Positions 2,280 through 9,180 of a stretch of 64,000 nt of DNA are shown here, piece after piece (the first letter of the stretch is position 1; each line of letters opens with the position of its first letter). The stretch is taken from the NCBI GenBank assembly GCA_965213685.1, contig CBDBZY010000064.1, positions 1,408,001 to 1,472,000 on the forward strand. Reading direction: 5' to 3'. A model generated the notes under the pieces. The model was given only the letters and a program-made list of their open reading frames with translations, was not told the origin of the DNA and made no database searches. This stretch comes from a bacterium (GTDB lineage: Bacteria; UBA8248). A program made the position numbers and the translations under genes.

Positions 2280-3253
2280 CTTCTGCAAAGTTATTCTAAG
2301 TTTAATATTGTGCAACAGTTTTCAATAGTATAGATGGACTTTATCACTCACAACTAGAATAGTTGGTAGAAATTACCATCACTCCTTTTTCGACTGCAGC
2401 ACTGGTATATGCAACTATAAAATATAATTCATATAATTATGGAAAAAGTAAAATATTTAATCATGTTTTGTAATAAGAGATATATGAGTTCAAAGTTCAT
2501 GAAGTGCAACTATAGGCGGATACTCTGAGCAGTTGTGTTGCAGCATCATGACATTGCACAAGTGTACTTCACCAATACCATAAGTGCATTCATTACATAA
2601 TTATACGCATCATTAGTGTGCCACATATGCACACATAAGGTAACTTCTACATGATCGGACAATATGGGGGTGGTCAGTGTCAAAAGTGACTGTTTTATAT
2701 TAAATGACAGTTTTGGAGCTATGTGTTCCCTGAATTGGGGTGTGTGTTTCATGATATGTTTGTGAGAAGGGTATGTATTGTGTCTGTGAGAGGGGGTGTG
2801 TGTTGTGTGAGAGGTAGCATGTGTTCTGTTTGGGGGAAGTTCTGTGGTTCTGAGGCCTGTATTCTGTGAGGGGTAGTGTTCTGTGAGAGGGCATATGTGC
2901 TTCTGTGAGGAGAGTGTTCTGTGAGAGGTGTTCTTAATAAGGGGAGTGGTATGGCAAAACTACTGATAGCAGGTGAACACAAATGTGGTAGTGTGTGGAT
3001 CTATTGTAATGGCAGATGGTTTCAACAGCAAGAAGTCGCAACAGCAAATCTGTTGCTGGAAGCAGTATCTAGGCTAGAAAATATGACCAGCAATAGGTAA
3101 TATTAGTGATAGCACAACTTGAAATGTCCCCAACAGAATTGAATCTTCCTTCATGCCTCAGGTTGTTTCCCGGTCCAGATCACTTGCTTTTGGAATGTAA
3201 GGCAATCTGAATCCTCATAGAGCACAACCCCACCCCACAGAACCCTCCACTTT

Positions 3254-4197
3254 ATGAAACACCAGAAGCACTTAACTTCTATATGTACCTGGGTTACCAA
3301 CAATCACCTCACTTTGAATTCTAAGAAGAGTTGTTACATGTTGTTCTCCAGGAAGTCACATCCAACTGTTCCTGCTACTAACCTTTATACTGGAGACTGC
3401 CAACCACTTACAAGAGTTTCCCATTATAAATACCTCGGACTTAATTTTTCTGAGGATCTATCATGGAGCCATCATATTCAGATACAGTGCAAGAAATCCC
3501 GCAAACTGATTGGAATTTTGTTTCGAAACTTCTATGCGTACTGCAATGCTCATACTCTACATGTTCTGTTCAAAACTGTGATTATGCCCCACTTAGAATA
3601 TGGTTGTGTGGTTTGGGATCCTCACCTGCTCAAAGACAAAACAGCCATCAAAAATGTTCACAAGTTTGCTTTAAGGGTGTGCTCAAAGCAATGGAGAGCT
3701 AGCTATGAGTCTCTTCTGACCACTTTTCATGCTTTTTCAATGTCAGAAAGAAGAGTACAACTGAAACTGCTCACATTATTTAATATGGTTAAGGGAAATA
3801 TTTTGCTACCATCGCTTCCATTACAGCCTAGGAATATTCCATATGCCATCAGACATGCAAATCAGCATCAGCTCACTCTCCCTCTGTACCGCACAAACTC
3901 TTTCAAGCACTCTTTTTTCCCTTCTGCCATCACCTACTGGAATGACCTCCCTTTTGACACAATGGAACTATCATCTCCAGCAATGTTTAAAAGACTTGTA
4001 ATGCAGCTCTAGTCAGTAACTATTGCATTTCTTTTTCCTTATATTTCTTTCCTTTGTTTTTGCTGTTCATTCACATTCCCTTTTCCTTGTGTATGTGTTC
4101 TTTTTTCCTTTGGCCTCAGGATTAGTATTAGCTCTTGTAGCTATTTCTTGCAGGCTGTGCACACTTGGCACAAATTTGTCAATTAAAAAAAAAAAAA
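3254..4197 (+). mobile_element. 5'-truncated CR1/L2-type LINE (RT C-terminus, 3' UTR, poly-A)
   Basis: ORF 3254-4012 with YKYLG..LSWSHHI, PHLEYGCVVWDP, SFFPSAITYWN typical of CR1-clade ORF2 C-terminus; A13 tail at 4185-4197. Confidence 0.9.
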
Positions 4198-4513
4198 GCA
4201 CCATGATGTTAGCCTCGTTCCCAGGCTCCCCCCTAGCGTACGCATATGACCTTTGCAGTACAACAATCGAAAAATCAGAGGGAGAGCATTTCATCCCACG
4301 AATGACGTCACAGGGTAAGAACTTTATTGCCGAGCGCCTTAGCGCGAGGCAACTAATTCCGCATCGCATCTCAGAAATAGTTTCTATTTAAGTATGTATG
4401 TATGTATGTACGTCACGCTTAGGAATTTTTTTTTTTTTTTTTTTTTCTATAAAAGTTTATGCCAAATGCAAAGGTTACATACAGTAGCAGAGTGCTAATA
4501 CAAGGTATGCAAC

Positions 4514-7333
4514 CTAAGGACAAAGAAACAAGGGACAGAGAGAAGACTTAAATGAGTGTATAGAGTCAGCAGTTAAAGCCTCGTGGGGTAAATTGTTCCA
4601 TAGTGATATAGAAGAAAGAACAAAAGATGAGAAGAAAGAATTGGTGCGTGCAAAGGGTTGATGAAGAAGTGGTACAGGTGCTGAGATGTTTGACCTAAGT
4701 GGCAATATATCAACAGGAAAGTAAATTAATTTATGAACAATCTTATAAAGAGTACACAACTTAAAATACAGACGACGGTTACGGAGAGTAGGACACTTAG
4801 CAAGGTCAAGTAAATCCTGATAACTCAGATTATCCCATTGTTTAGAACATATTTTCAATGCAAGTTTCTGTGTATTTTCCAGTTTTTTTATGCTTCTGGC
4901 TGTACAAGGATCCCAAACTGGGGCTGCATATTCTAAATGTGGCCTGATTTGTGTGGTATACAGTTCAAAGAGAGTGTCAGATCCAGCACTATTGTAAAAG
5001 CATCCGTAAAGTAGGCCCAAGAGTTTCCTTGCTTTGGTGCAAACAGATTCAATGTGTGGTGTCCAAGAGAGGTCTGACGATAGGATGACACCAAGGTATT
5101 TGATGGTATCGACACATTCCAGTGGAATACCCTCTAGAAGTATGGCTGGGACATCGGTTGGTTTCCTCTTTCGAGACACTCTCATATATTTGCACTTAGA
5201 TGGATTCATAGTCAGATGATGTGTGCGAACCCAAGTATTTAATAAGTCATTGTCCTGCTGAAGGTGTTGAGTGTCACCTGCAGAATTGAGACCTCTGTAC
5301 AACAACATGTCATCAGCAAATAAGTTAATGTAGGTACCAGAGGAGAAAGGCAAGCTAGCAGCATCATTGATGTAGATAAGGAACAGCAAGGGTCCTAACA
5401 CTGAGCCCTGTGGTACTCCAGACAGCACTGGTAAAGGAGCTGAAGATTCGCCACCAACAACCACTTTTTGAAATCGTCGAGTAAGGTAACTTCGCACCCA
5501 TTTCAGAATATGGGGATGAAGCCCAGTAGCTTCTAATTTCTGAAGTAGGGGTACATGAGGAACTGAGTCAAACGCTTTGCGAAGGTCATAGAAGATGGCA
5601 AGAATTTCCTTGCCAGTCTCCAGTGCTTGAAGCCAAGCATGGACCACAGTTAGGAGAGAAGCCACAGCTGACTTTCCATGTTGAAACCCCCACTGGTTAA
5701 GAGCAAGTTGGTAAGAGGTGTTGAAATGATCAGTAAGCAGCCAATGGAAGTGTCGTTCAAGCAATTTGCTCATTATGGAGAGGAGGGAGATTGGCCGGTA
5801 GTTGTCAGGTTTACTACTATCACCACCCTTGGGAATGGGAACGATGGATGATTCCTTCCAACATTGAGGAAACTTGCCAGTCCTGATTGAAATGTTAAAT
5901 AACTTTGTTAGTGATGGAACAATACTCTCAAGTGTGCCTTTTAACATCCTAGAAGAAATTCCATCTGGTCCACTGGCTTTAGACACATCCAGAGAGCGAA
6001 TAAGGGCTGCTACCTCCTCTTCACAACAGAGGAAATCATCTGGACAGTGGTTAGATGGACAATCATTTAGGGGCTCAAGTAATGGTGGAACAGCAGGATT
6101 GAAACAGCTGGAGAAGAAGTCATTCAGCATCTTAGCTTTGGCTGAGTTGGTAGATGCAGACACATCATTTAACATAAGAGTAGGAATGGTTGATTTTTGT
6201 TTGCTAAGACATTTGATTGCTTTCCAAAACTGTTTCTTGTTAGTTGAACTTAAGGTATTGAAGTAGGCTCTTCGAGATTTACGAATCATGGAAGTTACAG
6301 TATTACGCAACATTTGGTACCTCTTAGCACTGTTGCAGTTGGGAGACTTCTTATGTTTTCGAAAAGCAATGTTACGTTTATGAATACACCGAACAATATT
6401 CTGGTTCAGCCAGGGCAGATTGTGCCTCCTTGGCAGTTGCCTTTGAGGAATACACTCCGACATTATCTCAAGAAAGCGTTTTTGCCAGTTACGGGTGGAA
6501 GTGTCAATGTCATTTTCATGTAGCAAGCTGTCCCAGTCAGTGATGCGAATCAGGTCACAAGCCTTGGTGAAATCCGCATGCTTGTAGTCCCAAATTAGGC
6601 GCTGGGATAGTTTGAACTGTCTGTGAGTGGGTTTCCATTTTAGTAGAAGGTGGAGGCCATTGTGGTCAGAATTTGCAAGAGGTGGGGTAGTACAGCACTG
6701 AATAAGTTGAGACATGTCTGATAACAGAGCCAGATCAATGATAGATGGCTCTCCATTTGGTTTAGTGTGAGTTGAAGAAGTGACTGCTTGTGAAAGTGAA
6801 AAGGTATATAAAAACCCATGTAACTTTGGGGAGAGAGGATGGCTGGGATTGCAAAAATCCACATTGAAATCTCCTATAAGTACGAAAGTAGAAAAACGGG
6901 AAGGATTGATGTTGTGTACAATTGAAAGAAGAGAATCAAAAATATTTGCAGGAGACGATGGTGGCCTATAAAACAGTGAGATGCAATGCTTTGATTTGGG
7001 AGGTGGGGAAGAAATGGAAACAGAGAGAAACTCTAGATTGGGAGATCCCGTCATTAGTAATTCACTAGTGACACATGACTTTACATAAATTATGACCCCA
7101 CCACCATGCCTGTTCCGGTCTAACCTATAAAGTGCATAGCCCACCAGGGAAATTTCAAAGTCAGATATTTCAGTGGAGAGCCAGGATTCCACTATGCAGA
7201 TTACAGTTGGTTCAAGATCTTCCACAGTAGCAGCCAGTTCATCAAACTTGGGAAGGAGACTTCTTGCATTGTAATACAAAATTGACAAAGGATTGGAGCT
7301 GGGAGTACCAGGTTGAAAGCTTGCGCCTTCCAC
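4514..7333 (-). CDS. LINE ORF2: APE endonuclease + reverse transcriptase
   Basis: 939 aa uninterrupted. APE motifs YYNARSL, IVESWL, IGDFN, SDH; RT motifs YRPISLL, YDLRKAFD, GVPQGSVLGP, FADD, KYLGV. No AUG upstream of the APE domain. Confidence 0.95.
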   Translation of the reverse strand: MEGASFQPGTPSSNPLSILYYNARSLLPKFDELAATVEDLEPTVICIVESWLSTEISDFEISLVGYALYRLDRNRHGGGVIIYVKSCVTSELLMTGSPNLEFLSVSISSPPPKSKHCISLFYRPPSSPANIFDSLLSIVHNINPSRFSTFVLIGDFNVDFCNPSHPLSPKLHGFLYTFSLSQAVTSSTHTKPNGEPSIIDLALLSDMSQLIQCCTTPPLANSDHNGLHLLLKWKPTHRQFKLSQRLIWDYKHADFTKACDLIRITDWDSLLHENDIDTSTRNWQKRFLEIMSECIPQRQLPRRHNLPWLNQNIVRCIHKRNIAFRKHKKSPNCNSAKRYQMLRNTVTSMIRKSRRAYFNTLSSTNKKQFWKAIKCLSKQKSTIPTLMLNDVSASTNSAKAKMLNDFFSSCFNPAVPPLLEPLNDCPSNHCPDDFLCCEEEVAALIRSLDVSKASGPDGISSRMLKGTLESIVPSLTKLFNISIRTGKFPQCWKESSIVPIPKGGDSSKPDNYRPISLLSIMSKLLERHFHWLLTDHFNTSYQLALNQWGFQHGKSAVASLLTVVHAWLQALETGKEILAIFYDLRKAFDSVPHVPLLQKLEATGLHPHILKWVRSYLTRRFQKVVVGGESSAPLPVLSGVPQGSVLGPLLFLIYINDAASLPFSSGTYINLFADDMLLYRGLNSAGDTQHLQQDNDLLNTWVRTHHLTMNPSKCKYMRVSRKRKPTDVPAILLEGIPLECVDTIKYLGVILSSDLSWTPHIESVCTKARKLLGLLYGCFYNSAGSDTLFELYTTQIRPHLEYAAPVWDPCTARSIKKLENTQKLALKICSKQWDNLSYQDLLDLAKCPTLRNRRLYFKLCTLYKIVHKLIYFPVDILPLRSNISAPVPLLHQPFARTNSFFSSFVLSSISLWNNLPHEALTADSIHSFKSSLCPLFLCP

Positions 7334-7350
7334 GAAAGGAGTAAGTGCTT

Positions 7351-7869
7351 CTAATTGTCTAAAAAAGGCGGTGTATTTACAGGAGGTAGGGAGTCAGACA
7401 ATAGGGAACAATGGGTCACACCGTCTGCACTGATGTCTTCACTGTGAGTAACAATGACTGTGTCTGTAGCAGTTGCAGATGAAGATGTAGAAGATTGTTG
7501 AGCATTGTCTGGTTGCAGTGTAGATGTTTGTGGTTGCTCTGGTTGCTGGCCAGGTAGGACATTGGCAGGAGAGCTGTCTTCATAGCAGTACATATTCTCT
7601 AGTTTCCAACCTGTGTGGGTAGAAATGTTCATCCATTGTTGTTCAAGCATGTTTATGGCAGACAGATCTCCCCGTATTACAAACCACCACCTTTTCACCA
7701 GTCCACATTGCGAGGTTTTGTACTTGCGTTTGATTACCAGGCCACTTGTCAAAGATTGTGTGGGAATGAAGCGCCCAATTGCATTGAATAGTGCTGTCGA
7801 TGTGGTAGACCTCAGAGTGCCCCATACCTTCCTTGCATCTGGGATGAGAGCACGATTCTTGAGTGGTTT
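7351..7869 (-). CDS. LINE ORF1 C-terminal fragment
   Basis: Open frame directly upstream of ORF2 within the element (RKVWGTL..KRWWFVIRG..GWKLE, then Q/S/T-rich tail); the first residues of track ORF 7351-7908 are host sequence. Confidence 0.75.
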   Translation of the reverse strand, partial: KPLKNRALIPDARKVWGTLRSTTSTALFNAIGRFIPTQSLTSGLVIKRKYKTSQCGLVKRWWFVIRGDLSAINMLEQQWMNISTHTGWKLENMYCYEDSSPANVLPGQQPEQPQTSTLQPDNAQQSSTSSSATATDTVIVTHSEDISADGVTHCSLLSDSLPPVNTPPFLDN

Positions 7870-8519
7870 TGCAATTAGTTTGTGCGCTACGCGCAAACGT
7901 ACGTGCATGTGCGCCAGTTAGCATGCAAACGGCAGTACAAGTCGAGGCGCCGGCGCGTATACGACGGCCTACTCCTACTGCAGGCTTCCTGCATGTGAGC
8001 GGCCGTCTCCGTGATCCCGGCCAGCATAATCAAGGTCTTCTCGCCTAGGGGGTTTACCAGCTGATACTAAACTGGGAGTCAGAAAAGTAGTCAAAACTAT
8101 TGCTAACACTTCAACCGCAGAAATTAATTGCGCGAGGCTCTACACTGCGTATACGTATCTCTCAAGTGAAAGCTACCGCAAGCAGTAGAACGCCTACGCT
8201 AGCCAAATACTATGCGAAGCAGCGCGTTGGTTCATCGCTGCATCGTCGGTTCTCTGTGCGAAGCGACACTGAAAGGCGGGTAGAGTCGGGACAAGAAAGA
8301 ACAGAGCCCGCTCAGATAGTTGCGGGAGGAAAGCACGCGGCGTCTTACTAGTTACTGTGAATGTATCTGAGTAGCCCATTTGCTAAGCAGCTTTACGCAA
8401 GCTGCTAACCTTTTCCTTGTATGTGACCTTGAGTGTTCTCGGTACTGTAGTAGTCGCACGGTCTTCACGTTAGCACAGCCTGAGCGCGGTAGAGCGCAGG
8501 TGTGGTTTATTTCCGTGGG

Positions 8520-9180
8520 CAACACCGGTACGCGAATTTTTATCTGACTCACCGTTTTCGAACTTTAGCGTGAGGTCAAGGTTCACAACAAAGAGTGGGA
8601 GCGCGCGGCCGTAGTACACAGCAGTGTGTCCTCTAAACGTAGAGAAAACGTGATGTGACTGGTGAGCTTTCTGTTTCTTACATGGGGGCAGGAATAGGTG
8701 GGAGCAGGGGTGGCCATACCCCCCACACTTGCCAGCTATTGCATTGTATCAAAGCTTATATAATTTTGTAGGCTGACTTTTGTATATGGGTGTGGCTAGA
8801 TGTCCCCTCCACTTAACATGTAGACTCTACTTCCTACTTCCATGTATAAACGCAAAACTCACACTAAGCACTAATTTTGTTTTGTTATGGTGACTGACAA
8901 GGTTTTGTGTTTATACGTTAACTAAGTGGAGGGGGCACCTAGCCACACACATATCCGCCTACAAAAACTGTATAAGCACTACAATAGCTGGAGAGTGGGA
9001 GGCCATGGACACCCCTGCTCCCACCTATTCTTACCCCCTTGTAAGAAACGCTTACCTGTCACATCCCGTTGTCTGCGTTAGGAACGCACTGCCGCCGCAA
9101 GCGCCTCCACATTTTATTGTGAACCTTGACCTCACGCGAATTTCGAAAAGGGTGCGTCAGACTACCGGTACCGTGGCGGG
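8520..9180. mobile_element. Foldback/MITE made of long imperfect inverted arms
   Basis: TTTTCGAACTTTAGCGTGAGGTCAAGGTTCACAA (~8556) is inverted at ~9117-9150; inner arms (~8677-8815 vs ~8925-9048) also complementary; second, interrupted copy at ~43230-44700. Confidence 0.75.

Follow-up and report, generated by a model that had tools for sequence, protein, structure and literature searches.

The window, a 64,000-bp stretch (contig CBDBZY010000064.1 of GenBank assembly GCA_965213685.1, positions 1,408,001 to 1,472,000 of the forward strand), carries on its minus strand a 3.44-kb copy of a long interspersed nuclear element (LINE), assigned to a family designated here family A. The copy occupies positions 4426-7870, is poly(A)-tailed and is nested within another dispersed repeat; these limits were set from three uninterrupted paralogues of the host repeat, in which window position 7871 is joined straight to ~4425. 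The part of the first open reading frame (ORF1) present in this copy lies at 7351-7870 and comprises the C-terminal RRM-like region and tail, ending with TAG at 7353-7351; its frame is open from stop to stop over 7917-7351. ORF2, read from the proposed shift site, covers ~950 codons at 4514-7366 (stop at 4516-4514). After a linker of ~26 codons, Pfam identified an N-terminal APE endonuclease domain (~6662-7276; Exo_endo_phos, residues 40-244, 1.9e-07; Exo_endo_phos_2, 9.3e-09), followed by a central reverse transcriptase domain (~5081-5836; RVT_1, residues 520-771, 2.7e-34).

On the minus strand the junction reads ACA CCG CCT TTT TTA GAC AAT TAG, and the two frames overlap by 43 nt (7351-7393), with ORF2 in the -1 frame. 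As the ORF2 frame lies one base 5' of the ORF1 frame, the heptamer T_TTT_TTA at 7366-7360 is in the X_XXY_YYZ phase of slippery sites, with Z at codon position 3. Starting at 7393, the -1 frame stays open until the stop at 4516-4514, and the first Met of ORF2 is residue 113, inside the APE domain. An earlier reading made from the sequence only had described the end of ORF1, the phase of the heptamer, the stop-free passage into ORF2 and the late first AUG in the same way, but its ORF2 of 939 amino acids is replaced here by 959 codons from stop to stop. From 7393 as far as the APE domain the window has no AUG, the nearest in-frame NUG being a GTG (7331-7333) 18 nt past the ORF1 stop. There is also no AUG overlapping or adjoining the ORF1 stop in the window, as in the UAAUG stop-start of SART1, and no NPG motif of the 2A StopGo type in either ORF. 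Taking XXXYYYZ with Y as A or T as the canonical heptamer, ~0.05 phased heptamers would be expected in one 43-nt overlap (27 in phase per 20,691 nt of ORF1 body). Contigs from three public runs, possibly of the same host and not independent support, cross the heptamer without a gap (X2, 7299-7529; X5, 7305-7523; X6, 7295-7871). Run X9 holds a decayed copy, in which the T-run is altered and there are deletions that are not multiples of three.

Programmed -1 ribosomal frameshifting is the probable means by which this arrangement is translated, and it would yield an ORF1-ORF2 fusion. Ribosomes translating ORF1 would meet U_UUU_UUA four codons ahead of the ORF1 stop, and for a minority of them tRNA-Phe in the P site and tRNA-Leu in the A site would slip back one base onto UUU_UUU. 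From there the -1 frame would be read across the linker, which is poorly conserved, and on into the two enzyme domains, endonuclease and reverse transcriptase. The product would be a fusion (...PPFL-RQLEAL...), far outnumbered by ORF1 protein in the manner of retroviral Gag-Pol and Gag. Slippage, its low efficiency and the resulting fusion are all inferred from the nucleotide sequence.

The junction was compared with those of other LINEs in the host contigs of the same assembly. Twenty junction-bearing loci were inspected, and in two of these, C64:989568 and the more distant element C18:54285, the junction has no T-run. Frames were analysed at 18 junctions, representing about 10 lineages. At 15 of the 18, a phased N_TTT_TTR is present with ORF2 at -1, such that the last base of TTT_TTR is codon position 3 of the upstream frame and position 1 of the downstream APE frame. 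The full T_TTT_TTR is found at 10 of the 18, and the three exceptions are point changes of the same site (TTT_TAA in two cases and a four-T run in one). Five lineage representatives are 42-48% identical over the first ~300 residues of ORF2. The possibility that the shifted frame arose from a homopolymer indel specific to this copy was ruled out by the 15 junctions with the phased site and -1 overlap.

A comparison anchored on the site was made for 16 lineages, 10 from the same assembly and 6 from elsewhere. Conservation of at least 75% is confined to C-TTTTTT-A-G-x-C, with only background levels on either side. Phe-Leu is encoded by TTT-TTR in all 16 lineages, for which the expectation per lineage is 0.21 (0.58 x 0.36, from codon usage in three ORF2s). 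Since a T precedes the run in 12 of the 16, in codons for an amino acid that varies (P, S, V, H, R or N), the conservation at the site is read as a constraint on nucleotides and not on peptide. The interpretation of CCTTTTTTAG as a splice acceptor was rejected because lineages B, F and G carry TTTTTTGG. In the otherwise variable linker, a peptide of the form (M/V/L)EG(A/V/E)S(S/H) (window 7300-7345, minus strand) recurs in many lineages ~15-40 codons before the APE domain, and this block is near-invariant at the nucleotide level among lineages A, A2 and A3.

Relatives outside this assembly were sought in scans with an alignment of five APE N-termini, which gave 82 loci, 2 in another mis-binned assembly and 80 in metagenomes. 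The alignment reached the start of the APE domain at 81 of these, and the loci were classified mechanically. The -1 arrangement with an ORF1 of at least 100 codons was found at 27 loci, and at 16 of them a canonical heptamer lies in ORF1 phase inside the overlap. Within 2,160 nt of overlap, 18 heptamers are in phase, against 2 and 2 in the wrong phases; from the ORF1-body rate given above, ~2.8 in phase would therefore be expected. The heptamers are TTTTTTA (L022, L024, L025, L026, L058, L074), GGGAAAC (L036, L038, L045, L047, L095), TTTAAAC (L035), AAAAAAC (L092), AAAAAAG (L042), CCCAAAC (L030) and AAATTTT (L072). Copies of the same family are included among the loci (L038/L045, L053/55/73/94 and L048/62). 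A +1 arrangement with an AUG in ORF2 was recorded at L041, L050, L052, L068, L071, L078, L083 and L090.

In a tree of the APE domain, obtained by a quick search and rooted at the midpoint for drawing only, a clade with a Shimodaira-Hasegawa-like approximate likelihood ratio test (SH-aLRT) support of 99 holds 10 rows, all with TTTTTTR: the window family, B, C, E, H and L022-L026. The other heptamer types are intermingled in a second group, and most members of a third are +1 with an AUG. Long open frames are present in several elements. L022 combines an ORF1 of 374 codons from Met with an ORF2 of 947 codons across a 22-nt overlap that holds T_TTT_TTA, with no AUG ahead of its APE domain, and ORF2s of 984 and 926 codons follow GGGAAAC in L047 and L036, respectively. 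When read by eye, ~17 of ~26 lineages with the -1 arrangement are without an AUG from the shift site up to the APE domain. The phased heptamer is thus kept within a minimal -1 overlap across deeply diverged relatives while the type of heptamer turns over, and the core of the sequence-only reading, an ORF1-ORF2 fusion made by programmed frameshifting, is supported by this conservation of overlap and phase. Four single-ORF relatives (L040, L043, L061 and L085) carry 2A-like NPGP motifs (for example, GQVHTNPGP and DVERNPGP) in an N-terminal extension of ORF2, 60-100 residues before the APE domain, in agreement with the 2A sequences described for APE-type non-LTR (long terminal repeat) elements in the accessible part of PMC3708506.

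Several observations weigh against frameshifting as the explanation. Among the 27 loci with the -1 arrangement, 11 have no canonical heptamer. The A-site codon is UUG in lineages B, F and G, giving a heptamer that ends in G, and in eukaryotes -1 frameshifting is inefficient at heptamers with G in position 7; three copies of lineage F were found. Position 1 of the heptamer is C or A, not T, in A2, A3, D and G. Among the outcomes that the sequence-only reading had named as fatal were, for the family consensus, a single fused ORF, with a 1-nt homopolymer indel in this copy, and an in-frame AUG before the APE domain. Neither the fused ORF nor the indel was found in the relatives, and this check did not refute frameshifting, but an in-frame AUG past the ORF1 stop and ahead of the APE domain is present in 9 of ~26 lineages with the -1 arrangement. 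In addition, L058 has an overlapping TAATG, and the conserved (M/V/L)EGxSS motif begins with the GTG in the window.

The lack of a downstream RNA structure counts on the same side. The sequence-only reading had placed a stem-loop shortly after the heptamer; the segments it named are present in the sequence, but their pairing is not in the minimum-energy fold given by RNAfold. Compared with shuffled sequences, folds after the window heptamer have z scores of -0.18 (50 nt), -0.97 (80 nt) and -1.08 (100 nt), and 25 of 200 shuffles of the 100-nt stretch fold at least as well. Hence, no stimulatory stem-loop was detected ~5-9 nt downstream in the window, pseudoknots not having been searched for. 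The proposed stem-loop is not kept in lineages A2 and A3 or in further lineages, and no significant or conserved structure was found in the 50 or 80 nt downstream of 12 junctions of the assembly (z -1.1 to +0.8). A search of window positions 7150-7450 against Rfam gave no family with E values up to 10. Among the 16 relatives with a canonical heptamer (mean z -0.42), a significant fold is seen in only two, namely a 10-bp hairpin ~10 nt past the heptamer in L058 (z -2.3) and a long hairpin 6 nt past it in L092 (z -2.9). The comparison across related junctions therefore bore out the expected XXXYYYZ site and -1 overlap, but not the conserved downstream structure. The L058 hairpin is GC-rich, and the segment L058:990-1060 brings it together with T_TTT_TTA and the stop-start TAATG.

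A further difficulty is specific to family A. ORF1 of this copy and of its sister has no in-frame ATG before 7650, and in this copy four out-of-frame ATGs precede; delivery of ribosomes to the heptamer in family A is therefore unexplained. An in-frame CTG at 7813-7815, present in both family A copies at the position of the family H ATG, is a possible non-AUG start for ORF1. A short upstream ORF from the ATG at 7838 ends in a TGA that overlaps this CTG. Homologues of ORF1 were found by tblastn at five other LINE loci, with 28-48% identity. In full-length relatives ORF1 has 320-446 codons and an N-terminal PHD finger, and family A is without ~200 N-terminal residues that include the PHD region. 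Family A could represent a subfamily in which ORF1 is short and starts at a non-AUG codon, or its 5' end could derive from a truncated master copy.

In the most serious rival account, ORF2 would be a separate protein, made by termination-reinitiation or by some other AUG-independent initiation just past the ORF1 stop, and the T-run would be kept for another reason. The GTG at 7331-7333, which encodes the V of VEGASF, is the candidate non-AUG start in the window. Many homologues have gene calls that begin MEG[AVE]SS, although the gene caller behind these is not known. Prokaryote-style gene callers write GTG and TTG starts as M, and human L1 ORF2 needs no AUG. Where the motif is internal, EG is preceded by M, V or L, and the codon for this residue is ATG in B, H and L024; in several lineages an AUG lies 7-25 nt past the ORF1 stop. 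The TAATG of L058, followed by its hairpin, resembles the arrangement of SART1 as given in the accessible part of PMC3894237. However, C, D, G, L022, L026, L036, L038/L045, L047, L092 and L030 have neither the motif nor any AUG, and the close relatives L025 and L026 share the heptamer but differ in the presence of an AUG. Reinitiation also leaves unaccounted for the phase-specific enrichment of several canonical heptamer types and the choice of TTT-TTR in 16 of 16 lineages. We consider it unlikely as the explanation of the junction, though frameshifting and reinitiation could operate side by side.

It is very improbable that the frames are joined at the RNA level by stuttering of RNA polymerase II, or of the element's own reverse transcriptase, on T6, so that RNAs with one extra U encode the fusion. 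The junction does contain a six-base homopolymer, and slippage on such runs is known elsewhere (PMC5009743, accessible part). However, the GGGAAAC, TTTAAAC and CCCAAAC sites of the relatives have runs far too short for stuttering, yet are classical sites of tRNA slippage, and lineages with five Ts retain the same phase. The DNA contigs are without length variation at the T-run, an observation on DNA and not on RNA. Scarcely credible, finally, is the absence of any recoding, with the site explained by protein constraint on the ORF1 C-terminus (PFLD) or on a peptide and ORF2 supplied in trans, or with the frame change explained by a decay indel: an ORF1 tail of (P/S)FL(D/V/G/E) in many lineages and the missing ORF1 AUG of this copy would fit, but TTT-TTR is used without exception in the 16 lineages and, in 12 of them, T is the wobble base of the codon before, regardless of which amino acid it encodes; a GGGAAAC or AAAAAAC heptamer goes with an ORF1 tail of ...GN or ...KN, and the -1 arrangement is common to lineages 42-48% identical over ~300 ORF2 residues and to elements with long open frames.

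The window LINE belongs to the Jockey superfamily and is a young, poly(A)-tailed copy. Its tail is a run of 21 A at 4426-4446 (minus strand). A second family A copy in the same assembly (G000:C64:869675-866439) is ~97% identical over 3,260 aligned bases and has its 5' end at the identical base (AAAACCACTC), although the flank is different. This suggests that the 5' end common to both copies is the real RNA start. A third copy is 5'-truncated and has a tail of 23 A. The target-site duplication at the insertion is at most one base (A). The host repeat around the LINE lies at 7871-8078 and 4326-4425, and at least three uninterrupted copies of it occur elsewhere (C64:1439940-1440025, C64:1343990-1344060 and C16:421235-421320), followed by a (CATA)n-like microsatellite.

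Other repeats related to the element or close to it were also recorded. Five fragments of ~85-250 bp with 75-83% identity are spread across 70 kb (G000:C64:960636-1030599); each starts at the equivalent of window 7432 and covers only the last part of ORF1, the junction and the first part of ORF2, and together they may belong to a composite or non-autonomous repeat. Just past the 3' end of the element, window positions 3236-3991 (plus strand) hold a fragment of another LINE, 40% identical to ORF2 residues 699-949. A repeat of ~640 bp at 8525-9161 has a reverse-orientation self-match of ~69%, and is present in both orientations on C64 and C18.

The assembly is filed as that of a prokaryote and consists mostly of contigs with ~65% GC, together with large contigs of 44-53% GC (C64, C18, C41, C16, C7 and C51), of which C64, the contig of the window, is 1.64 Mb long with 44% GC. 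An ORF2 query matches five of the low-GC contigs, chiefly C64 and C18. The window is therefore eukaryotic host DNA that was binned with a bacterium, a symbiont. A sponge metagenome label is attached to 6 of 20 public runs that hold the element (shares 0.35-0.47), and these labels are a hint at the host only.

The sequence-only reading had named the element CR1. The PHD finger in ORF1 of full-length relatives is mostly under the Pfam cut-off (above it in L053, L074 and L090), and L058 and L074 have a GDSL esterase in addition; Pfam gave no match in ORF1 of this copy. According to the accessible part of PMC4120745, ORF1 types with PHD, RRM or esterase domains belong to the CR1 and L2 lineages of the Jockey superfamily. 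The ORF1 type of the relatives does not separate CR1 from L2. CR1 proper ends 3' in a short tandem repeat rather than poly(A), and family A, with A21 here and A23 in the third copy, departs from this. Given the PHD/esterase ORF1 of the relatives and the poly(A) tail, the element is filed as a CR1/L2-type LINE of the Jockey superfamily and not as CR1, a provisional placement that uses the ORF1 type of relatives and not a reverse transcriptase tree. A protein search gave 259 matches, none of the 120 listed among them carrying a name that would indicate a clade. The APE and reverse transcriptase domains agree with the earlier label, the poly(A) tail runs contrary to it, and CR1 itself is not established.

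The gag-pol frameshift site of HIV-1 is U_UUU_UUA, with a stem-loop after a short spacer. Overlaps in the -1 frame are on record for certain insect LINEs, jockey and R1 among them. The window junction shares with retroviral gag-pol the heptamer, its phase and an enzyme ORF in the -1 frame without its own start, and in both cases little fusion beside much structural protein would be expected. It differs from HIV-1 in that no stem-loop is detectable in the window, and as LINEs are without a protease the fusion would stay fused. Among LTR retrotransposons, pol is in the -1 frame in 28 of 51 animal elements, many with heptamers (PMC5009743, accessible part), and here too the signature is an overlap with a phased heptamer whose type varies among lineages. 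For non-LTR elements, the accessible part of the same paper mentions only a frameshift internal to gag in HeT-A and the start codon of TART.

Other LINEs are described with different devices, in sources cited here from their accessible parts. SART1 uses UAAUG stop-start coupling (PMC3894237), and reinitiation was suggested for L1 (PMC1965478). Both resemble the window element in having a bicistronic LINE RNA in which translation of ORF2 depends on ribosomes that have translated ORF1, whereas the window has no AUG near the stop and instead a 43-nt ORF overlap with a slippery site. The 2A-like StopGo sequences of APE-type non-LTR elements, CR1/L2 included (PMC3708506, PMC3894237), are likewise a recoding device on the N-terminal side of ORF2 in the same superfamily, but they act by peptide-bond skipping and not by a change of frame. 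In LINEs of Paramecium, ORF2 was suggested to be expressed by +1 frameshifting, reinitiation or readthrough (PMC5405496). In that case recoding was also proposed from the consensus ORF arrangement, but it is of the +1 or readthrough kind, in another clade, and the accessible text mentions no slippery heptamer. The word frameshift is absent from two reviews of LINE translation (PMC3894237, PMC2881922), and the words frameshift and overlap are absent from PMC4120745. The literature searched, which did not extend to subscription journals of the 1980s-2000s, yielded no account of a slippery heptamer where ORF1 and ORF2 of a LINE meet.

How ORF2 of LINEs is translated from a bicistronic RNA is a decades-old question, to which L1, SART1 and the 2A-bearing elements each give a different answer. 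A conserved, phase-locked slippery site with turnover of the heptamer is the comparative signature by which frameshifting in retroviral and LTR gag-pol was identified. It is an even call whether the finding extends to an old and large CR1/L2-type branch, represented perhaps in sponge DNA and in many environmental assemblies, that routinely makes a Gag-Pol-like fusion by -1 frameshifting, with heptamers exchanged among UUUUUUA, GGGAAAC, UUUAAAC and AAAAAAC and often without a strong RNA stimulator. In such a branch the fusion would set the ratio of ORF1 to ORF2 and would tie ORF2 physically to the ORF1 coat of its own RNA, providing a structural basis for cis-preference. If frameshifting is correct, ORF1-ORF2 fusions would be functional in target-primed reverse transcription, and an annotation pipeline that requires ORF2 to begin with AUG would get such elements wrong. 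Non-LTR and LTR retroelements would then have converged on one device for controlling the stoichiometry of their proteins.

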